From the NCBI RefSeq assembly GCF_053078305.1, contig NZ_CP166879.1: 64,000 nt of DNA; one strand, 5' to 3'. How positions within the stretch are numbered: position 1 is the stretch's first letter; the number at the start of each line of letters is the position of its first letter. Below the pieces are notes generated by a model that was not told the origin of the DNA, did not search any database, and was given only the letters and a program-made list of their open reading frames with translations. The translations under genes and the position numbers were made by a program. Below are positions 9,641 to 19,435 of the stretch, one piece after another.

Positions 9641-12025
9641 TTAGAATGAAAGCCCTTCACCATCAGCCACAATCCTGTACCCCATCGCCTTATAACCCCG
9701 CTGGCGTTTATCCCACATTCTGAGCAGCACTGGATACGCGGTATCCACAAAATCAATGATCCTGACATCGCTTTTACCGGTATGCTCTCTGTGTAGACGT
9801 CCCGCATACTGCTGTAACGTCCCTTTCCATGACACAGGCATGGCAAGAATCAGCGTATCCAGCGGAGGGTGGTCAAATCCCTCACCAATAAGTCTGCCTG
9901 TTGACAACAAAATACGGGGAGAATCAGGAGGAAGAGCATTCAGCCCGGAAATCATCATAGTACGCTTTTTTTTCGATAATCGACTATGGAGAACAAAAGG
10001 CGACAATTTCAGTGTGTTCATCACTGAGGCTATATCATCCAGATGATCTGTACGTTCAGTCAGTACCAGAACTTTACGCCCCTGCCCAAAAGCTTTCATG
10101 GCTTCTTCAGCTATCGCCACCGTTCTGTCATGATCCAGAGCAATTTCTCTGAAAATATCCTGGATTCTCGCATCCGATGGTAAATGACCAGATGTAAAAC
10201 GGGAACGGGTCAGCACCTCCAGATTATGTGGGCTTTCCTTCGGGCGGGACGCTGTATGGCGAATGGCACCACAGTACATAAAAATAATGGGGTGCAGACC
10301 ATCCCGTCGGATTGGTGTTGCCGTCAGGCCAAGCAGATATCTGGCATTCGTTTCCTTCAGAATCGCAGAAAATGAAACCGCGCCAATATGATGGCACTCA
10401 TCCACAATGATTTGCCCATAATTCCTGACCAGAGGTTCAACTTCTCCGTGTCTGGATATGGACTGCACCACCGCAATATCAATATTGCCACAGGGTTTAT
10501 GTTTCCCTCCCCCGATAATACCAATACTGTCACCGGCCTGCAGAAACACCGCGAGACGCTCCTGCCACTGCTTCAGCAATTCAGTCCGGTGTACCAGTAT
10601 CAGTGTATTCACTTTCCGTCTGGCAATCACTGCCGCTGCGGTAACTGTCTTACCAAAAGCCGTTGGCGCACAAAGCACACCAGTGTCATAACGGAGTAAT
10701 GCCGAAACGGCCTCTTCCTGCTCCGCTCTGAGGTTTCCCATAAAAACGGCATTACATTCCGTCCCGGCAAATCGTTTATCGATTAATTCTGCAGCAATAT
10801 TGTTGTCCCTAAGGAAAGATAATACGCTGTCCAGACATCCCCGGGGCAACGCAATGTGTTGCGGGTAATTCTCCGCACAACCTATAACACGGGGCTTATT
10901 CCAGACTGACATACGCATTGCCTGAGCCTTATAAAACTCAGGGTTCGGAAATGCTGCCAGCCGAATAAGTCGGTTAATCAGCACCTGAGGTAATTGCGCT
11001 TTTTCGAAATAGATCTGATTTGCCAGCGTGATTTTCAGCGGTTCAGCAACAGCAAGATTCAGTCTGTTTCCTGATGATTTTTTCCCTTCCCATGGCGTAC
11101 CCAGGTCTTCTTCGTTGATAAAGTTCACATCCAGAGGATGGATACTTCCTGTAGCCCGTAATATCGTCGGTTCAATATCCTGCACATTCATCGGGAGCAC
11201 CGACGCAAGAAAAGCCCACTGATCAGGATGAGGCTGGAAATTCATATCAACAAAAACACTTCCCCCCGATGCACGCGGTCTTTTTTGCAGAGGTAACGCG
11301 ATAAGATTACCAAATCCTCCTTTTGGCATCGTATCCTGATTAGGAAATAATCGGTCATAAGAACTCAATTGCAGCTGTCGGGTCCGGCTGCACGTATAGC
11401 TAATAACAGCAGTCCCCAGACGGCGAGCTTCGCGGGCCGAAACTCGTGAAGCAAAAAATATCCAGACATGCGCTCCCTGACGTGAGCGGGATATTTCCAG
11501 CACAGCGGGTACACCCAGCTCATCACAGGCTCGCATGAACGCGGATGCATCCTTCTGCCATTCAGCTTCATCAAAATCAACAGCCAGAAAATAACAGGAA
11601 TCATCTTCCAGCAACGGATATAACCCGGCAGTATGCGTGCCTGCCAGATGCTGGTAGATGACAAGATCAGATACAGGAATCAACTGACGGTGAACGCAGT
11701 CCCCACATTTTATCCGGGGCTTACCGCATATTCCCAACTGCCATTCGTTAGCGCAGGCCGGCGAGTACCCTGATTTGCCGCTGGTTTTACTTTCCCATCT
11801 AAGTGCCCATACATCATCACGCCCACGAAACAACCGACGAAATAATGCAACCTTCTCGTCGGTGGATAATACAGAAACGCGCTGCACAGGAGTCTGCGGT
11901 TTACGTCTCCATTCAATCCCATGAGCTTCAAGTAATGAGACCAGACGGGCATTTTCTGCCCTCAATGCAGCTAATTCATCGCTGTCAGATTTATGAACCA
12001 TATTCGTTACCTGTATCCGATCCAC
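9641..12025 (-). CDS. Superfamily-2 DEAD/DEAH (ResIII-like) helicase with N-terminal Cys/His-rich, possibly primase-polymerase-like domain
   Basis: 794 aa; helicase motifs AFGKTV (Walker A), IIVDECHH (DExH), LGLTATP, GEGFD, QQYAGRLHR; N-terminal C-x-C...C-x2-C-x-H cluster and VDFD...GAHVWIFF pattern; stop lies 18 bp from the PRTase stop (convergent). Confidence 0.7.
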   Translation of the reverse strand: MDRIQVTNMVHKSDSDELAALRAENARLVSLLEAHGIEWRRKPQTPVQRVSVLSTDEKVALFRRLFRGRDDVWALRWESKTSGKSGYSPACANEWQLGICGKPRIKCGDCVHRQLIPVSDLVIYQHLAGTHTAGLYPLLEDDSCYFLAVDFDEAEWQKDASAFMRACDELGVPAVLEISRSRQGAHVWIFFASRVSAREARRLGTAVISYTCSRTRQLQLSSYDRLFPNQDTMPKGGFGNLIALPLQKRPRASGGSVFVDMNFQPHPDQWAFLASVLPMNVQDIEPTILRATGSIHPLDVNFINEEDLGTPWEGKKSSGNRLNLAVAEPLKITLANQIYFEKAQLPQVLINRLIRLAAFPNPEFYKAQAMRMSVWNKPRVIGCAENYPQHIALPRGCLDSVLSFLRDNNIAAELIDKRFAGTECNAVFMGNLRAEQEEAVSALLRYDTGVLCAPTAFGKTVTAAAVIARRKVNTLILVHRTELLKQWQERLAVFLQAGDSIGIIGGGKHKPCGNIDIAVVQSISRHGEVEPLVRNYGQIIVDECHHIGAVSFSAILKETNARYLLGLTATPIRRDGLHPIIFMYCGAIRHTASRPKESPHNLEVLTRSRFTSGHLPSDARIQDIFREIALDHDRTVAIAEEAMKAFGQGRKVLVLTERTDHLDDIASVMNTLKLSPFVLHSRLSKKKRTMMISGLNALPPDSPRILLSTGRLIGEGFDHPPLDTLILAMPVSWKGTLQQYAGRLHREHTGKSDVRIIDFVDTAYPVLLRMWDKRQRGYKAMGYRIVADGEGLSF

Positions 12026-12151
12026 TGAGGCACCACGGCAAAAATTCGGGTCCCCTACACTGATGACAAAGCCGCCCTCTGCTGCCTATTAACTCAAGCA
12101 CCTCCCAACAACTTACAGAAACTTAATTCTAATACCTAATACAGCTGTAAT

Positions 12152-12715
12152 TCAGTTGTGTCGTGGTCGGCCGCGGTTACTTTTTTCGGGAAGCCTGCTA
12201 CGGCCCAGAATAATACCGTGTTCTTTCTGATCTTGTTTAGCCAGGTAGCTGAGGGCGTAACGTAAGTCGTCTACCGCAGATTTATCACTATAGTGAATCA
12301 CGTGATCGATACGCACCGGGTATTTGTCTTTAGCCCGGCACAGATGAAAATAACCCTCCCCTTCCGTGATCCGCCTCCAGATATCCCCCAGTTGCCTGGA
12401 TGTCTGATAAGAGTTCTTGTGACGTTGTCCATCCAGATAGCCGATAAAATGAATATGAAGCCCTTTGTCTGGTGTATATTCCATTACCCAGTAATATCCC
12501 GCCAGCATCGTTTGGGTTTCACTAAGTAAACGGTATATTTCAATACACATACTGTGCTTACAGGAATGCCCGAAACTGGGCGTGTCTTTCCTGTAGGCAA
12601 AATCAATTCTGAAAGGTAACAGTTTAGAAAAACGTTGAAACAGACCTTCCATGTGTTCATTCACGTCTTTCAGAATCGTGAAATTCATTTCGTAATTGGG
12701 GTTAGCATTATACAT
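12152..12715 (-). CDS. YagK/YfjJ-family (inovirus Gp2-like) cryptic-prophage protein
   Basis: 187 aa; position downstream of a yfjI-like gene and alpA matches the CP4-57/CP4-6 arrangement; family call is from memory, not a search. Confidence 0.5.
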   Translation of the reverse strand: MYNANPNYEMNFTILKDVNEHMEGLFQRFSKLLPFRIDFAYRKDTPSFGHSCKHSMCIEIYRLLSETQTMLAGYYWVMEYTPDKGLHIHFIGYLDGQRHKNSYQTSRQLGDIWRRITEGEGYFHLCRAKDKYPVRIDHVIHYSDKSAVDDLRYALSYLAKQDQKEHGIILGRSRLPEKSNRGRPRHN

Positions 12716-13677
12716 TTTATAGTCCTTACTTTATAAAACTCACAGGAAGAGGAAATTACGTAAATGCTGAGGATACAGAAACGTCGTACCACGGCATTAA
12801 TAAACTGGGTAACCAGTATGCAGACAACCTGATAAAACTGTTTCGTATTACCTCATTACAGTAATGGGAGTAATACTTCAGAATACAGTGAGACTCTCTT
12901 AAACTGAGGACCAGTACGAATTACAATGGTAAAAACACACCTCATAGAATTAAGTTTAAGAAAGTACCATTCAATCACTTACAGGAAGTAATCTGATCTT
13001 CACAAAAGTCAGCTATCGAATAGCCACAGGCAACATCGCTATTAGTATTGCCGTACCATTAAGTAAAAACAGAGACTCTGCAGAGAGAGCCTACAGATAT
13101 TTAACCTCACAATAAGAAGATTATTTCATACAGAAAAGATTATATTTACCCATACTTATAAACTGTAACGGAGATATAACGTACGAACTAAAGACAATAT
13201 ACTCTAATAGTGTTCCGGTACGTAACTAGTGTTAAATACAAACCAGACATACATTTAGTGGATTAACTTTCTCAATATTACGCTATGAGTGTAGTAACAT
13301 AATTTACACATAACTAAACCCCATACACCACCACACTGTAGTATATGGGGATAGACGCATTACGCACATACAGAATACTCAGCATAAAGAGGAGTGACAT
13401 TACGATAAAAAGAGACAACATAACTCCCATTAATAATACTAATTAACCTAAATTATTTATTGAATACGAAAACAATGAGGGGGTCTCCTCATCCAAGACT
13501 AAAGCCAGCAATATCCTGAACAACACTCTATCCAATAGTAAACAATGGTTATACCAGTTATATTTGCTGACTGATCTGTACCAGAGTTCTGTAATACAAC
13601 AACGCTGACATGGTAAAAGCATTAGTCTCCTCCGCAAGTAGCAGAGGAGACTATATGTTACTCAACGATTAAGTCGT

Positions 13678-15132
13678 TCAGAGGTCAAAGTTAGGTGCGA
13701 CATACCACGTTTTGTCGTCAATAAACTGTACAACTCTGTTTTGCTCATACAGTAAATCCAGTAACCAGTTGAGTTTATCTTTTTTACGGAAACGGTTCGG
13801 ACCACGCTGTAAAATGTCATTTTTTCTCATACAGCGTATCCCCTTCTCAATGCAACAGCTTTTTATCCAGTTGAAAAGTTCAAGCTCCTCTGGAATGAGT
13901 CGCATAGGTACGGTCAGTGCAGAGTTTTCAAACGTTAACGGACTGGATAACCGAATATACTCATCGCCGTACCATATTGCTAATTCTCTCGCCATTTCAG
14001 CAGTGTAGGGGGAAATGTCACCTTCCTCACCGCTAAAATGGTGAATAAGCCCTGCCAGTCTTGCCATATACTCTGCATTTTTAGCAGCATATTCTCTGAA
14101 GTCTCTTAAAGGCCCCAGAACCGACATCTTCGATTCCACATTGTTGTAATAGTCCGTCCAGATTCTGGCTGCCTGAGGAGAAAAGTGAAGGCAACGCCGC
14201 TCTCCCCTCATAGCCAGGCTTTCATCAATGAGTTCATTTATCCTCTGTTCAAACAAATCCTGATACTGTGATGAATAATTATCTCCGGTTATTATTATCC
14301 TTGTCCCCTGCGTTGATGTTGGTTGACACATCAAAAACCTTGCATGATGTCCTGACGTTTTCACAAGTTCTTTTTTTCGTGTACAAAAACCTTTGTGGTA
14401 AACATCAGGCTGAACCATCACCGATATCGTCAGTCTTGGCTCCTTCAAAAAAATTCCGGGAGATGATTTCCTGTCGATGAAAAGAGAACCACCATCCCAC
14501 AAAGAGTTAAGTATTCCCAGTTTACTCATTGCCCGGCTGTCAAAAATTATCCCACCTTCACTGGATACAAGAGCAAAAGAGCGGTTGCTATCAGAATAAT
14601 ATTTTAACATTCCCTCTATCGTTGTATCATTAAAAATTGTTCGATGTATCTGTGGTGGAACAGGACACTTATTCAGATGTGTTTTAAGCTCTGATTCTGT
14701 TGTCTTATAATCTTTACCGGTACGAATCTCTTTATGAAGTTTTGACTCCAGTGCTTTTTGTTTTTGCGCCCATATTTCCTTTTCTGTACTGTAACTCTCA
14801 ACCAGTTTCGCGTATTCTTCCGCCAGGGCTTCATCCCTGAGATAAAATGCTTTCATAAACACTTTATCCACGGTCGTTTTCCTTTCACCAGAATCAGCCA
14901 GAATCATAGAGTAAATATTAGAGGACCCACGTAAATTTCCTGGTCTGCACACATCAACCTGATTCTGACAGGCAATTGACATCGCTGTTAATGCTGCAGT
15001 TATCGCCATAGCTATAGGTGTCTGTGTATTCTTTTGAGTTTCAATTATTGCATTTCTCGCCAGCGGTGGCATTGCATATATCGGACAAGGATTTTCTGGT
15101 GCAAGTAAGCACATAAATGCCTCTCTTTTCAT
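13678..15132 (-). CDS. YfjI-like (DUF3987-type) protein of P4-like integrative elements
   Basis: 484 aa, directly downstream of alpA-like gene; size and context match CP4-57 yfjI. Confidence 0.5.
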   Translation of the reverse strand: MKREAFMCLLAPENPCPIYAMPPLARNAIIETQKNTQTPIAMAITAALTAMSIACQNQVDVCRPGNLRGSSNIYSMILADSGERKTTVDKVFMKAFYLRDEALAEEYAKLVESYSTEKEIWAQKQKALESKLHKEIRTGKDYKTTESELKTHLNKCPVPPQIHRTIFNDTTIEGMLKYYSDSNRSFALVSSEGGIIFDSRAMSKLGILNSLWDGGSLFIDRKSSPGIFLKEPRLTISVMVQPDVYHKGFCTRKKELVKTSGHHARFLMCQPTSTQGTRIIITGDNYSSQYQDLFEQRINELIDESLAMRGERRCLHFSPQAARIWTDYYNNVESKMSVLGPLRDFREYAAKNAEYMARLAGLIHHFSGEEGDISPYTAEMARELAIWYGDEYIRLSSPLTFENSALTVPMRLIPEELELFNWIKSCCIEKGIRCMRKNDILQRGPNRFRKKDKLNWLLDLLYEQNRVVQFIDDKTWYVAPNFDL

Positions 15133-15362
15133 TAATGGGTTAGTAAAGTAGCAGCAACTCCCGCTATAATAGCGAAATAGCTGCTGTTCAGACCTAATGT
15201 TCTGAGAAATACAGAATATCTGTAGATCTGATGTTTAATAAACCGATAAGGTTAATTCAGTTCATACTGTGTTATTTACCACGAAATATCATTCATGTTT
15301 CTCATTCTTAACACCTCCTAAAATTATTTCACTAACACCTTCCCCCCGGTCTTTTTCCTTTC

Positions 15363-15590
15363 TCAGGAATCAGCCAGAACCATAGTGTAAATATTAACGG
15401 GCCCACGTAAATTTCCGGGGTTGCACACGTCAATCTGATTCTGACAGGCAATTGACATCGCTGTTAATAATGATGTTGTAGTCATAGCCAGAGATGCTTT
15501 TTCATTGTGTTGAGTTTCAATTATTGCATTTCCAGTCATTGATGGTTGCGCATATACTGGATACGGAGTATCCGGTTTGATGTAAGACAT
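15363..15590 (-). pseudogene. Truncated duplicate of the yfjI-like 5' end
   Basis: 75 aa ORF; DNA 15363-15480 is a diverged copy of 14883-15000 (shared ...ctgattctgacaggcaattgacatcgctgttaat...); the protein repeats the NAIIETQ...AMSIACQNQ.DVC.PGNLRG block. Confidence 0.5.
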
Positions 15591-15695
15591 AAATATTTCC
15601 TTTTTTCGTAATAACTTTCGGTTATAGCAGCTATTTCCGCTACAATAGCAACAATAGCTGCTATACAGACTGGATATACTGAAAATACAGACAGT

Positions 15696-15923
15696 TCATC
15701 TGGTCTGTATCCAGCAGAGAAGGTCACTTAACAACCATCCGCAAGATTTCTTTCCGATAGACTTACGTGGTGGAAATGTTCCCTCCCGTTCAAGTTTCCA
15801 CGCTTGTGTACGAGAAATTGACGTGATCTCATATCGTTCCTTTTCACGTACCAGTCTGTCGCATTCAATCCCATAAGCTTTCAAAATGACCAGACGCTGT
15901 TCATCTGTTAATGGAAGCCACAT
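15696..15923 (-). CDS. alpA: AlpA-family prophage transcriptional regulator
   Basis: C-terminal ...ITSISRTQAWKLEREGTFPPRKSIGKKSCGWLLSDLLCWIQ is AlpA-like; likely ATG at 15923-15921 (MWLPLTDEQ) preceded by AGGAGGG; the track ORF begins upstream at a TTG (15944). Confidence 0.75.
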   Translation of the reverse strand: MWLPLTDEQRLVILKAYGIECDRLVREKERYEITSISRTQAWKLEREGTFPPRKSIGKKSCGWLLSDLLCWIQTR

Positions 15924-16614
15924 ACTACCCTCCTGATATATCAATACTTTTTATTTCCGGCATGAGCATGAAATGACTAAGTTTCCCGGATAAACAATGA
16001 GTGAAAGTCACTATCATTCATCCAGTCAACACCTTGCAAATAAAATGTAATACCATGATTTTTATAGGTCAAAATACTGAATTACAATATTAAAATGGCT
16101 TTTAATAGAAAAAATAAAGACATATAGAGCCAAATAAAAACAAGCCGCGACCAATAAAAACAAAAAATTAATATTAAAAATCCATTATGACGATTTTTGT
16201 TGACTAAAATTAGGTTTGGATATATAAATAAATCCATGTAAAATTCAAACAAGGCATGGAGGAGTCGCAGGAAGGTGAAATATTTCCATCTAATTTGTGA
16301 TAATCATCACAAAAATAAGCTACAACAAGCGGAGGAAAAGACAATCTGTTGCTGAACAGACAGAAGCAGGCTACGAATGATCGGAAAATGAAGCAAATAC
16401 GCTTATACAGAAGACGCAGAGGTAACTGACGGAGACAATCACAATCAGGAGAAAATTATCGTAAATAATGTATAAAATCTCAGGATATAAACAAATGTAC
16501 ACAAGCTATCCACGTAATCAGCGGCTGGCTCAGGATTAACGTTTCATTTCAGTGGACAACATCGATTCTGTCTGACAGCGGACCAATATGTAGCAAGCAG
16601 AAACTTCTGACATC

Positions 16615-18252
16615 ATGGTAACTCGGACAATGCAACAAAAGTATCAGTATGATCGTGTTTTATCCGGCGAACTCCACCCATTCCCTGGCATATACGAGGC
16701 GGTTTCCGAACAAATCCTTTTGCTCATTTTTAAAGCACGTCAACTATATCAGGATCCAGAATATCGCCCCTGGTTTGAAGAACAGCACAGAGTACTCTCT
16801 GCATTACGTGCCAATACAGAGCTCCTGAGAATCTTTAGAGAACAAAGAAGCGCTGAAGAACCAAAGCTTACTATTGAAGAGTCTACCTCCCCCCAACCCA
16901 CTCCTTCTGCTCTTACAGATGCGCTTAATGTGATGTGCCATATATACAATGGTTTTGATGAAGGAAATATCAGTCTGAAAACCTGGGGGGCGATGCAAGA
17001 GGTACAGACAACATCAACCTTTATCAGCCCAGGACCGAGAACCTGGAAAACACCTGAACTGGCAAAGTTTGTAGGAGATGATTTATTTAATATTCTGACT
17101 GAATGTAAGGCCTGGAGTTCACCAATTCCAGCAGAAACCCGACAGGGGTATTGCCATCAGGATCTGTCTGTTGCACACTCCTGCACCTCAGAGTTACTGG
17201 CACACCTGAATCAATATCATGAAATTGATGAATCAGCAATACTTGCCAGAGTTATTGGTATAACAGTTAACGGATTCTACAAGAAAAATAATACAGACCT
17301 TCCAGAATGGCTATCCCCCTTTAAAGAGGAACATAAAATATTCAGAGATTGTCCGGAGCAAAATACCGGGGATGTAATCAGACGGAAAGAACAACTGTTG
17401 AAAACAGGACGTACAGAATTCGTGAATAATTTGTGTCGGGTCGCCAACTGGTATGAAATTGAGTCAATATACGATGAATACGTCCGTCTTTATGCCAATG
17501 AAATCATTGACTGGTTCAACAAAACCATGAAGTATTTTAAACCAACAGATTTTATCCGATATACATGGAAATTCGCAACAGTTACTCCGGATAAAGATAC
17601 AGAAACCGGGCATACAACTGCATGGGAAAAGGATTATTGCCAGATAACCATACAACGTGATGAACTTCTGAGGTTGATTCACACCAATACCCTTCAGGAT
17701 GCAGTAATTTATCTTTGTCATTGTCTGCAGAAGGAATACAAGAAATCATCCCAAAATGAGATAGAGTTCCCAGGAATAAAACCTCCGACATCAGAGAGTA
17801 AAATTAATATAACAAATAATATTAAATTTCATTCTCTCCTGGAGCTCAGTAAAGATAATGAGAAGCGTCTGGAAACATTTCAAAAATGGTATGAAAAAAA
17901 TAAAGTTTTGTTAGAAAGTCATAAACAAAAACGAACAGAGAAGATTGACGTTGCCGTACGACTTGTAGGGCTGAAAGCCTATGATCTGCATGAAGGGATT
18001 CCGGATAGTCCAAAACGAAAAGTTAAAGATGGCATAAATGAAGACATCAAAGCCGATACCAGTTTACGCCTGTCAAAGACAAATATAAGTGATACGTCGC
18101 TAAACCGTTATCGCCGCACTGTTAAGGAGATTATCAATAACGAAATTGACGCATTCCTGTTGGAACAGAAGAAAAAAAATAAAAGATTTCCCTACAGTGA
18201 AGATAGAGATGTGATTCGACCTTTATGGGGAAAATGCCTGACCGGGCAGTAG
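16615..18252 (+). CDS. Hypothetical protein (545 aa), AT-rich, no recognisable motif
   Basis: Long ATG-initiated ORF in a low-GC region between alpA and thrW; product unknown. Confidence 0.45.
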   Translation: MVTRTMQQKYQYDRVLSGELHPFPGIYEAVSEQILLLIFKARQLYQDPEYRPWFEEQHRVLSALRANTELLRIFREQRSAEEPKLTIEESTSPQPTPSALTDALNVMCHIYNGFDEGNISLKTWGAMQEVQTTSTFISPGPRTWKTPELAKFVGDDLFNILTECKAWSSPIPAETRQGYCHQDLSVAHSCTSELLAHLNQYHEIDESAILARVIGITVNGFYKKNNTDLPEWLSPFKEEHKIFRDCPEQNTGDVIRRKEQLLKTGRTEFVNNLCRVANWYEIESIYDEYVRLYANEIIDWFNKTMKYFKPTDFIRYTWKFATVTPDKDTETGHTTAWEKDYCQITIQRDELLRLIHTNTLQDAVIYLCHCLQKEYKKSSQNEIEFPGIKPPTSESKINITNNIKFHSLLELSKDNEKRLETFQKWYEKNKVLLESHKQKRTEKIDVAVRLVGLKAYDLHEGIPDSPKRKVKDGINEDIKADTSLRLSKTNISDTSLNRYRRTVKEIINNEIDAFLLEQKKKNKRFPYSEDRDVIRPLWGKCLTGQ

Positions 18253-18338
18253 ATCACAGATGGGATAACATCCCGGTTATCCCCTGTTTGTTCTGCTTCA
18301 GGTTGCCAGAGCTCCAGGAACACGAGGCAATCGGCAAA

Positions 18339-18935
18339 TTATGCGGCTTTTCCATTAACAGATTCGACCACAAGAACAACACCGTGTTTGTTTCGATCAG
18401 GATGTTCACTCCAGATTTCTGATTCAGGAATACTTTCCCCATCATAGCAGATCCGATCACCATCAAACGGATAATACCGTGCGGAATCTGTATCTAAGAT
18501 AAACACCTTAAGATTCGTTGAACGACGCGCTATATGCTGCCAGAGGGCTTTACCTCCTTCATATTGCTCGTTATCACTTAATAGTATAACGCCTGCTTTT
18601 GTGGCTATTGTTTCATAAACAAACGTAGCAAGGCTAACATCACGTACAGCGCCATCGACAACAATCCCTTCAATCTGAGCAACGTCCTGTTCTTCCCAGA
18701 ATTTCCGGACAACCCCCCCTTCAAGCTGTGAACGACGCTGAAGCTCCAGAGTGGCAACAACCTTATAGCGAATATCACCATCAATAACAGAAGGTGCAGC
18801 TTCGATTACCGCAGCGAACGGAGTCTTTGGATCCCAGATGATCTGGTAAAGCACACCCTGAATAGTTACTCCATCCAGTATCGAAAAACGACGAGCTACA
18901 GTAGCAGGGGAGTAAGACATTGGAATGACAGCCAT
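18339..18935 (-). CDS. Hypothetical protein (198 aa) next to the tRNA attachment site; not integrase-like
   Basis: ORF convergent with the 545-aa gene; occupies the position usually held by an integrase but is too short and shows no tyrosine-recombinase pattern. Confidence 0.4.
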   Translation of the reverse strand: MAVIPMSYSPATVARRFSILDGVTIQGVLYQIIWDPKTPFAAVIEAAPSVIDGDIRYKVVATLELQRRSQLEGGVVRKFWEEQDVAQIEGIVVDGAVRDVSLATFVYETIATKAGVILLSDNEQYEGGKALWQHIARRSTNLKVFILDTDSARYYPFDGDRICYDGESIPESEIWSEHPDRNKHGVVLVVESVNGKAA

Positions 18936-19245
18936 TTTATGGCCTAAAATTTGAAAACATCAGTATCAATACTGACCTCATCAGTCTGAGCATATATTGA
19001 TAAAGTTTTTATGTTTACACTCAATAAATACCTTGCTAAACAACTAATAGCGATGTCTACATTGCCATTCGACATGCTTACAATTTTTGTCAACAAGAAA
19101 GTGAATTTATATCAACGGTAAGAAGTAAACACGAGGACACCAAAACCAAATGTATACACTTTTGTGCTTTGTGTCCCCTGTGTGTACCCAAATGACAAAC
19201 TGCAAGAAAATCTAGGCACACACTTATCTAACTTATTGATTTAAA

Positions 19246-19321
19246 TGGTGCCGATAATAGGAGTCGAACCTACGACCTTCGCATTACGAATGCGCTGCTC
19301 TACCAACTGAGCTATATCGGC
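19246..19321 (-). tRNA. thrW: tRNA-Thr (anticodon CGT)
   Basis: Reverse complement reads GCCGATATAGCTCAGTTGGTAGAGCAGCGCATTCGTAATGCGAAGGTCGTAGGTTCGACTCCTATTATCGGCACCA, 76 nt with cloverleaf-compatible stems and CCA end. Confidence 0.9.
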
Positions 19322-19435
19322 CCTGAAAGGACATGTTCACGAACGTGAATCACGGTGGACAAGGTTAAAACTAACCGGGCGATGCGTCAATGGCCTTGTG
19401 AATCAAATGGCTACTTTTGCATCACCCGGTTTTAT

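Follow-up and report, generated by a model that had tools for sequence, protein, structure and literature searches.

A probable tRNA-proximal end of a large genomic island in thrW of Escherichia coli, with a CP4-57-like backbone and an old yfjI scar

Introduction

Within a 64,000-nucleotide stretch of contig NZ_CP166879.1 (RefSeq assembly GCF_053078305.1; hereafter the window), the tRNA gene thrW adjoins a set of regulatory and replication-type genes that has no integrase beside the tRNA and contains a partial second copy of the start of yfjI. The arrangement raises the question of whether the locus is the remnant of an element that has lost its means of movement, or one end of an element whose recombinase resides elsewhere. 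A first-pass annotation, made from the letters of the window alone, proposed a decayed, probably immobile P4/CP4-57-like element that had been remodelled by internal duplication. Here we suggest instead that the locus is likely to represent the tRNA-proximal (attL) end of a large island, integrated site-specifically in the 3' end of thrW, which combines a CP4-57-like backbone with a recombinase at its far end and an old scar of a truncated yfjI copy.

Results

Gene organisation of the thrW-proximal region

The integration target thrW, a tRNA-Thr(CGT) gene on the minus strand (19246–19321; ARAGORN, and Rfam tRNA with 71.8 bits), overlaps the attL site (19229–19290, minus strand), which comprises the 45 3'-terminal nucleotides of thrW and ~17 nucleotides downstream and is repeated at the far island end in a twin island of strain STEC17-190. 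A non-coding arm (18936–19228, minus strand) that carries the motif TTTGGGTACACAcaGGGGACACA extends from thrW to a 198-aa ORF (18339–18935, minus strand). This conserved backbone gene matches PHROG 7522 (unknown function, E 5e-124), with no match in Pfam, PADLOC or NCBIfam, and shares 95.5% nucleotide identity with the relative 99E2750, at a dN/dS of 0.10. From the thrW end inward, the minus strand then carries alpA, a 75-codon stub of yfjI, full-length yfjI and a YagK/Gp2-like gene, and a 545-aa ORF (16615–18252) is placed on the plus strand, opposite to the backbone. The latter has no family match in four profile libraries, is 79.6% identical in nucleotide sequence to its counterpart in 99E2750 (dS 0.45) and corresponds by position to the yfjH slot of CP4-57 and to the slot of a 605-aa ORF in UTI89.

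The alpA gene (15696–15923, minus strand) encodes a 75-aa helix-turn-helix protein of the AlpA family, with matches to Pfam PF05930 (Phage_AlpA, E 2e-13, above the curated cut-off) and to PHROG 2790, 'excisionase and transcriptional regulator' (E 6e-23). It is followed by leader copy 1 with the conserved palindrome AGCAGCTATTGTTGCTATTGTAGCGGAAATAGCTGCT (15591–15695), the 5' stub of yfjI/DUF3987, a pseudogene (15319–15590, containing the 75-codon ORF at 15363–15590), a 94-bp spacer (15225–15318) and leader copy 2 (15115–15224), all on the minus strand, the last of which bears the same palindrome directly upstream of full-length yfjI (13678–15114, minus strand). The 478-aa YfjI is a predicted helicase-like replication protein (Pfam DUF3987, E 7e-84; PHROG 2373 'DNA helicase', E 3e-59) and is 42.6% identical to K-12 YfjI over 455 aa. 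An AT-rich non-coding gap of 962 bp (12716–13677, ~36% GC) with two hairpins of 13-bp stem, in which a search for iterons found none, separates yfjI from the YagK/YfjJ-like ('inovirus-type Gp2') gene, so named in RefSeq (12152–12715, minus strand); the position of the gap is kept in relatives, where it measures 821–1013 bp. The 187-aa product of this gene gives sub-threshold Pfam scores (REP_ORF2-G2P, E 0.0013; YagK_YfjJ_C, E 0.008) and no BLASTP match to K-12 YfjJ or YagK. An Rfam scan matched only the tRNA, and the number of sites in a promoter scan was no higher than in shuffled sequence.

Defence cargo lies directly after the alpA-yfjI-Gp2-like backbone. It consists of a TOTE archaeo-eukaryotic primase and SF2 helicase protein (9641–12025, minus strand; Pfam AEP-TOTE, E 1e-97, and ResIII/Helicase_C; PADLOC PrimPol, E 8e-141) and of a Shosta defence pair (8101–9623, plus strand), in which the ORFs of DprA-like ShosA (8101–9000; PADLOC, E 4e-103; Pfam DNA_processg_A) and ShosT (8997–9623; PADLOC, E 2e-50) are adjacent and overlap by 4 nt. 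The island also carries a contact-dependent inhibition locus, inside the cdiA gene of which the window ends. The GC content is mosaic, with 57% in the cdi genes and 36–49% in the backbone.

Attachment sites and a far-end recombinase

Searches of positions 1–20000 of the window by tblastn with five integrases (the cognate integrase of the closest relatives, IntA, IntF, the UTI89 integrase and the far-end integrase described below) gave a best E value of 0.2, and no integrase or integrase remnant is present between thrW and alpA. Thus, the first-pass annotation was right that an integrase is missing from the tRNA-proximal side, as it was in recognising the order alpA, yfjI and YagK/Gp2-like gene as that of CP4-57 (intA-yfjH-alpA-yfjI-yfjJ). 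The absence of an integrase from thrW to alpA and elsewhere in positions 1–20000, the pseudogene nature of the stub and the integrase that closely precedes the 198-aa ORF in the closest relatives would all be in line with a decayed, immobile P4/CP4-57-like remnant, from which the tRNA-proximal integrase was deleted before the yfjI 5' end was duplicated locally. However, the twin island of STEC17-190, which is 99.8–99.9% identical over 19 kb and spans ~48 kb, encodes at its far end a tyrosine recombinase of 439 aa, which is intact and beside which the 3' end of thrW recurs as a 54-nt direct repeat. This distal repeat matches attL at 54 of 55 nt (record positions 13825–13878); it contains a 1-nt deletion, to which an exact-pattern search is blind, and was found by blastn-short. 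For the first-pass annotation, an intact integrase and an att repeat just outside the window, in an excisable element, would have refuted its reading; integrase and repeat were both found, at 35 kb beyond the limit of the window rather than next to it and in STEC17-190 rather than in the source genome. By its 99.8–99.9% identity to the twin over 19 kb, the source genome, for which the window ends in cdiA, probably possesses the same integrase and distal repeat.

The thrW site is empty in strain ET350, the 6-kb flank of which is 100% identical to that of the window. When the two are aligned, the island sequence departs directly after ...AAATCAATAAGTTA, and the ET350 sequence downstream of thrW is that found in STEC17-190 beyond the distal repeat, such that the island constitutes a precise insertion. 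The combination of a direct thrW repeat with a precise empty site, observed for the twin and not for the window's own genome, points to a tRNA-linked island that integrated site-specifically, and the empty site in an identical background shows either a very recent gain of the island or its precise loss. In addition, the divergence from STEC17-190 rises about tenfold at thrW, from 0.13% to 1.5%: there are 25 mismatches in 19.3 kb of island, the first mismatch on the other side occurs 166 bp past thrW, and 9–22 mismatches per kb are seen from proA onward. The intact recombinase and repeat, the precise insertion boundaries and the step in divergence all argue against decay and immobility, leaving the remnant reading largely refuted and improbable.

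The far-end integrase adjoins a CbtA/DUF4942 arm, not alpA, and may belong to a second, tandem-fused element instead of to the alpA backbone. It is neither an orthologue of IntF, to which it is only 25% identical, nor a relocated form of the ileX-type integrase of the relatives, with which it shares only 22% identity. The same integrase is found in E. coli 536 in the absence of the thrW arm, and another, SfX-like integrase lies right beside thrW in that strain. The excision of PAI III536 has been published (PMC3202238), but is not assignable to the far-end integrase, given the SfX-like enzyme that is also present beside thrW in 536.

The thrW arm and the ileX-integrated relatives

In the closest relatives (431 genomes), the 198-aa ORF is immediately preceded by a 438-aa ileX-type integrase, which adjoins a 47-nt perfect repeat of ileX. 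Homology to these integrase-bearing relatives ends sharply at 18938, the start of the 198-aa ORF, and the slot of their integrase is occupied here by the thrW arm. The ileX islands of STEC346 and 99E2750, which lie near nfeF, share 9 kb of the int-198-545-alpA-yfjI-Gp2-TOTE backbone at 95% and 80–93% identity, respectively; the same stub is present in STEC346, whereas 99E2750 has none. The ileX islands have their integrase end towards the distal repeat and away from the tRNA gene, and a simple deletion of the integrase from a native copy would therefore not yield the layout seen here.

The thrW arm goes with the far-end integrase. In all of the 278 genomes in which it was found, the arm lies at thrW, and it is carried by ~190 of the ~200 genomes with the far-end integrase; moreover, a motif of the arm recurs in the spacer that separates this integrase from the distal repeat, with 22 of 24 nt shared and 12 nt exact.

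A possible, though distinctly less probable, history is that the 198-545-alpA-yfjI-Gp2-TOTE block of an ileX-type island was captured without its integrase by recombination into an unrelated thrW island; the far-end recombinase would then be that of the recipient island, and the alpA backbone would be passive cargo that plays no part in its mobility. Such a capture would fit the low identity between the far-end and ileX-type integrases, the CbtA/DUF4942 arm that adjoins the former, the sharp breakpoint at the 198-aa ORF, the mosaic GC content and the per-gene dS, which spans 0.08–0.53. On the other hand, the thrW arm, which directly adjoins the 198-aa ORF and accompanies the far-end integrase, fits an exchange of the integration module equally well; the two scenarios differ mainly in history and not in present structure.

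The truncated yfjI copy

The two copies of the yfjI 5' region are real repeats, as 14843–15136 and 15319–15612 align ungapped over 294 nt with 76% identity, well beyond chance, and a second block of similarity is found upstream (15176–15208 versus 15653–15685). The diverged partial copy that the first-pass annotation had noticed is therefore confirmed, but the repeated unit is ~382 bp (15319–15700 versus 14843–15224) rather than ~230 bp, and its register is 476 nt rather than 480 nt. The unit begins at the alpA stop codon, takes in the ~105-nt leader and ends ~45 nt beyond the stop codon of the stub. The 75-codon ORF matches positions 2–45 of DUF3987 in Pfam (E 1.5e-8), and in the RefSeq annotation of a 99.9%-identical genome it appears as 'DUF3987 domain-containing protein, incomplete, missing C-terminus'. 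A clean 476-bp tandem duplication is ruled out by the spacer that separates the copies, which resembles alpA neither when compared in register nor in a local alignment (as high a score was reached by 190 of 500 shuffles) and is unrelated to yfjI as well.

Among 5426 complete E. coli genomes, ~1337, or about a quarter, contain the stub along with the spacer and the full gene, and the spacer was found only alongside the stub, in 1337 genomes. The stub lies behind three different integrase/alpA modules, including islands with an intact adjacent integrase (UTI89, O111 and STEC346), and must therefore predate the present arrangement. This distribution and the unrelated spacer argue against the claim that internal duplication formed part of the decay of this element, and they weigh against the remnant reading as a whole. 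Rather, the stub is a scar without function, of single origin and far older than the present form of the island.

Genomes of the window type (~270, identity at least 95%) retain an unbroken 75-codon ORF that has a start codon and, ahead of it, a purine-rich stretch. The leader palindrome, GCTATT..AATAGC, is conserved across genera, being found upstream of yfjI in 99E2750, K-12 CP4-57, Yersinia rohdei and a Citrobacter species, and spacer plus leader 2 are better kept between island types (90–92%) than the stub itself (85%). These features could suggest that stub and duplicated leader are retained as functional parts, as a 75-aa peptide that modulates YfjI or as an additional operator- or origin-like palindrome site. 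However, the commonest type (UTI89, O111 and O157; ~1070 genomes) has the reading frame interrupted at codon 15, which is TGA in UTI89 and O111; dN/dS among stub lineages is 1.2–1.8; the same backbone exists without the stub in a relative; and Rfam gave no match. We consider such a function very unlikely. Equally faint is the prospect that the palindrome, conserved from Escherichia to Yersinia, acts as a cis site (operator, replication-protein site or RNA hairpin) of which the scar adds a second copy, with the window-type peptide tuning replication or induction.

As for its origin, the most likely source of the stub would be unequal recombination of two diverged members of the island family, which we weakly favour over an old internal duplication. 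One island would have contributed alpA, leader and yfjI 5' end, and the other the spacer, leader and full yfjI onward. Indeed, the segment that runs from alpA through the leader into the stub lines up with the corresponding segment, from alpA to the yfjI 5' end, of the stub-less 99E2750 at 80.6% identity, whereas the sequence from leader 2 onward is 93% identical. Relative to 99E2750, alpA has a dS of 0.53, the 545-aa ORF one of 0.45 and the stub one of 0.34, compared with ~0.2 for yfjI and the Gp2-like gene. That the spacer is unrelated to alpA also agrees with recombination. The substitution rates also fit an old internal duplication of the yfjI 5' end, and 99E2750 might have lost the stub secondarily, through a deletion from one leader to the other. 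For stub versus full gene dN/dS is 0.6–0.7, compared with ~0.5 for the same N-terminus in intact pairs, but dN/dS is not decisive between duplication and inter-island recombination for 75 codons of an N-terminus that evolves fast even in intact genes.

A full-length parent gene of the stub was not found among proteins, plasmids, phages or genome contigs: a set of 5.8 billion proteins yielded only short ORFs, plasmids gave copies of the stub itself and otherwise nothing above 44%, phages gave no match, and among genome contigs the only matches were YfjI genes of Yersinia and Citrobacter with 34% identity. A partial match in H65 that stops 29 nt into the stub reflects an IS-mediated deletion and not a parent.

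Discussion

The locus is an ordinary E. coli genomic island in thrW and does not challenge current understanding. The interpretation that we favour is a site-specifically integrated island with a far-end recombinase. Its regulatory and replication backbone consists of alpA, yfjI and the YagK/Gp2-like gene, as is typical for islands of the CP4-57 kind. In the version at thrW, the place of the ileX-type integrase is taken by an att arm of 307 bp, and a different tyrosine recombinase lies at the opposite end, by the distal repeat. Excision would generate a circle in which the far-end integrase is brought next to the backbone, with attP in between.

A tRNA-linked island that lacks an integrase beside the tRNA in a sequence window need not be immobile, since a recombinase on the other side of the attachment site comes to lie, after integration, ~48 kb away. 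The island carries Shosta and TOTE defence genes as well as a contact-dependent inhibition locus, and its mobility thus bears on the spread of such cargo. As a feature of roughly one in four complete E. coli genomes, the pseudogene scar offers a handy marker for tracing the lineage of one island family.

With P4, P4-like satellites and PICI, the island shares its linkage to a tRNA gene, a tyrosine integrase, an AlpA-family regulator with a replication gene of primase/helicase type after it, and defence cargo; P4-like satellites and PICI commonly carry defence systems. At ~48 kb, however, it is far larger, PICI being compact elements of ~10–15 kb, and no psu, sid, delta, epsilon or other gene for the redirection of capsid size or packaging was detected among the ORFs of at least 120 aa in 7231–19245 (Pfam, PHROGs) or in the STEC17-190 annotation. 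By this size and gene content it fits neither a P4-like satellite nor a PICI.

The resemblance to CP4-6 of K-12 concerns the integration module: both target thrW and have, at the tRNA-distal end, an inward-transcribed integrase beside a direct repeat of the thrW 3' end; this repeat is perfect over 60 nt in K-12 and spans 54 nt in the twin. They differ in that the far-end integrase is only 25% identical to IntF, in gene content and order, and in the CbtA-type toxin arm, which in K-12 adjoins thrW.

A K-12 element with a parallel backbone is CP4-57, integrated at ssrA. It differs from the island here, where a tyrosine integrase adjoining the backbone at the att end is absent from positions 1–20000, where a 198-aa ORF, the yfjI stub, the spacer and a second leader are additional, and where the gap from yfjI to the next gene is 962 bp instead of 153 bp. 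At the protein level, the Gp2-like product has no BLASTP similarity to YfjJ, and AlpA is weakly similar (34% over 29 aa). Nevertheless, both encode an AlpA-family regulator with a YfjI-type DUF3987 protein downstream of it, preceded here by stub and second leader; the two YfjI proteins are related, and a related palindrome lies in the alpA-yfjI leader. As in CP4-57, an opposite-strand ORF, alpA, the DUF3987 gene and a gene in the YfjJ/YagK position follow one another in the same order and orientation.

Layout of the thrW-linked island

The island lies in an E. coli genome to the left of thrW (tRNA-Thr CGT, 19246-19321, minus strand), which adjoins proA, and has a GC content of 36-49% compared with 55% in the flank. 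Leftwards from thrW, 307 bp of non-coding DNA (the thrW arm) lead to a 198-aa ORF (18339-18935, minus strand), a 545-aa ORF on the opposite strand to the rest of the backbone (16615-18252), alpA (15696-15923, minus), a 75-codon stub of the yfjI 5' end (15363-15590, minus), full-length YfjI (13678-15114, minus), an AT-rich non-coding gap of 962 bp (12716-13677) and a 187-aa YagK/Gp2-like ORF (12152-12715, minus). Directly downstream of this backbone are a gene for a TOTE archaeo-eukaryotic primase and SF2 helicase (9641-12025, minus) and a complete Shosta pair, ShosT (8997-9623, plus) and the DprA-like ShosA (8101-9000, plus); the trio (8101-12025) also accompanies the backbone in relatives of the ileX type. 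Beyond Shosta lie cdiB and cdiA, with 57% GC. AlpA, YfjI, TOTE and the Shosta proteins were assigned with Pfam, PADLOC and PHROGs, and the gene identities agree with those given by RefSeq for E. coli STEC17-190, whose copy of the island is 99.9% identical and has the stub annotated as an incomplete DUF3987 pseudogene.

The 198-aa and 545-aa proteins matched no named family in Pfam, NCBIfam, PADLOC or PHROGs. The former is highly conserved (dN/dS 0.10) and sits directly 3' of the integrase in all ileX-type islands; the latter is fast-evolving (dN/dS 0.43 against the ileX-type relative E. coli 99E2750, L007). Within the gap between yfjI and the Gp2-like gene we observe two hairpins with 13-bp stems (13623-13653 and 13319-13350) and found no iterons. 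The equivalent gap spans 821-1013 bp in relatives versus only 153 bp in CP4-57.

The yfjI stub is an old and widespread scar

Positions 14843-15136 align with 15319-15612 at 76% identity without gaps, with an additional block upstream of both start codons. The diverged copy of the yfjI 5' end described in the first-pass annotation is thus real, but larger than the ~230 bp proposed: the homologous unit begins at the alpA stop codon, takes in a leader of ~105 nt and ~270 nt of coding sequence, and ends ~45 nt beyond the stub stop codon (~382 bp, register 476 nt). The end of copy 1 is separated from the start of copy 2 by a 94-bp spacer (15225-15318) that shows no resemblance to alpA or yfjI, an equal alignment being obtained in 190 of 500 shuffles. 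Both leaders (15591-15695 and 15115-15224) carry the palindrome GCTATT(T)NCGC-TATTRWTA-GCGGRAATAGC, which is also observed in 99E2750 (L007 6010-6088), in CP4-57 of K-12 (L008 4400-4440) and in Yersinia rohdei and a Citrobacter species (L010/L011, ~3920-3960). As RNA, the two leaders have folding z-scores between -3.1 and -3.6, and the palindrome has no match in Rfam.

Of 5426 complete E. coli genomes, 1336 contain the interval between the alpA stop and the full gene (15140-15700), with identities of at least 95% in 271 and of 80-90% in 1071. The spacer as sole query recovered the same set (1337 genomes), each time at full length and accompanied by the stub. In UTI89 and O111 the order is integrase, 605-aa ORF, IS1 remnant, a different 98-aa HTH gene, stub, YfjI and Gp2, with TOTE additionally present in the O111 island, while the ileX-type relative STEC346, 95% identical to the window, has integrase, 198-aa ORF, 545-aa ORF, alpA, stub, YfjI, Gp2, TOTE and Shosta. 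Since the scar is found behind three different integration modules, it is older than the thrW arrangement. The stub itself is a dead fragment; its codon 15 is TGA in UTI89 and O111, and dN/dS between the window and UTI89 types is 1.2-1.8. Against the full gene its dN/dS is 0.6-0.7, not clearly different from the ~0.5 between intact genes over the same N-terminal stretch, which evolves fast. In E. coli Z1323CEC0002 (L012, 7001-8455), ISVsa5 is inserted 29 nt into the stub and all sequence up to ecpR is missing, the pao genes included; this IS-mediated deletion removed most of the thrW island together with some adjoining chromosome.

The frequency of the stub, its three integration modules and the foreign spacer speak against a local remodelling of this island by internal duplication, as had been suggested. 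In 99E2750 the same backbone has YfjI directly after alpA, without the stub. Relative to it, identity is 80.6% across a colinear block of alpA, leader and stub, and 93% across another made up of the second leader, yfjI, Gp2 and TOTE. The dS values are 0.53 for alpA, 0.45 for the 545-aa ORF and 0.34 for the stub (against the 99E2750 yfjI 5' end), compared with 0.21-0.23 for yfjI, 0.20 for Gp2 and 0.08 for TOTE. The two identity blocks, the gene-by-gene dS and the foreign spacer slightly favour, as the origin of the scar, an unequal recombination event that joined two diverged islands, rather than tandem duplication. An intact parent gene of the stub was not found in any collection searched, and 99E2750 could represent a later deletion between the two leaders.

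In a near-identical island the recombinase and a second thrW repeat lie at the far end

As stated in the first-pass annotation, no integrase is located on the tRNA-proximal side: five integrase queries, among them the one native to the closest relatives, gave no tblastn match better than E 0.2 within window positions 1-20000. Homology to ileX-type relatives ends where the 198-aa ORF starts (18938); in 431 genomes this ORF is directly preceded by a 438-aa integrase. In 99E2750 a perfect 47-nt repeat of the ileX 3' end, adjoining nfeF, flanks this integrase, and because no complete tRNA is present at that site, the integrase occupies the tRNA-distal end of the island. The thrW arm occurs in 278 genomes, at the thrW junction every time.

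In STEC17-190 the island extends left for 48 kb through cdiBAI, a methyltransferase-helicase pair, a GTPase, Ag43 and a CbtA/CbeA arm. Its terminal gene encodes an intact tyrosine recombinase of 439 aa, and after a spacer of 166 bp the thrW 3' end recurs over 54 nt with a single mismatch and a single deletion; in this near-identical copy the proposed search beyond the window for an integrase and thrW repeat thus recovered both. The motif TTTGGGTACACA..GGGG(T)ACACA occurs both in the thrW arm and, with unchanged orientation, in the 166-bp spacer, and we suggest that the two copies are arm-type integrase sites flanking an attP. The arm is also present in ~190 of the ~200 genomes with the far-end recombinase, as estimated from 478 places in 288 records versus 278 (arm) and ~200 (recombinase) singly. 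The window stops inside cdiA, and from near-identical genomes we infer that the source genome also carries the recombinase and repeat; the latter would read TTCGTAATGCGAAGGTCGTAGGTTCGACTCCTATTATCG(G)CACCATT, beside yagP/paoD. The recombinase may be a property of a host island that received the alpA backbone by recombination, rather than of the backbone.

Recent gain or loss of the island

To the left of thrW, the window and STEC17-190 differ at 25 positions over 19.3 kb, compared with 9-22 mismatches per kb from proA onward, the first of these 166 bp past thrW. Of the 25 differences, 13 cluster within 1 kb of cdiA (4001-5000), suggesting that a patch of the toxin gene has recombined locally. 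In strain ET350, the proA-frsA flank is 100% identical to that of the window, and the yagP-pao region follows thrW directly, with no island. The ET350 sequence after thrW aligns with the STEC17-190 sequence after the distal repeat, and the window diverges from both immediately past ...AAATCAATAAGTTA. Thus, the island represents a precise insertion into ~62 nt of thrW and downstream flank (19229-19290), and these alignments indicate that it was gained, or lost via precise excision, very recently in this background. Together with the 99.9% identical twin bearing an intact recombinase and thrW repeat, this insertion speaks against the view of a decayed, probably immobile element. The features noted at first pass were seen correctly, but the conclusions drawn from them (decay, immobility, local duplication) are not borne out.

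Comparison with known islands

The alpA, yfjI-like, yagK/yfjJ-like order is indeed that of CP4-57, and the similarity extends to AlpA and YfjI homology. By contrast, no integrase adjoins the window backbone, and its YagK/Gp2-like ORF is only weakly assigned to YfjJ/YagK. A P4-like satellite or PICI is ruled out, as the Pfam/PHROGs scan and the annotation of the STEC17-190 copy contain no capsid- or packaging-redirecting genes.

In E. coli 536 (L013/L014), the same far-end recombinase (99% identical DNA) adjoins a DUF4942-CbtA arm at the distal end of the thrW island. The same strain has an SfX-like integrase at a distance of 15 bp from thrW, with a vat island beyond; the locus appears to comprise tandem elements at one tRNA gene. 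Excision of the 536 thrW island has been published (PMC3202238) but is not assignable to the far-end recombinase, because the SfX-like integrase also lies beside thrW. K-12 CP4-6 has the same far-end geometry as STEC17-190, with intF and a perfect 60-nt repeat, although IntF is only 25% identical to the STEC17-190 recombinase. The window island is an ordinary member of the class of tRNA-linked islands.
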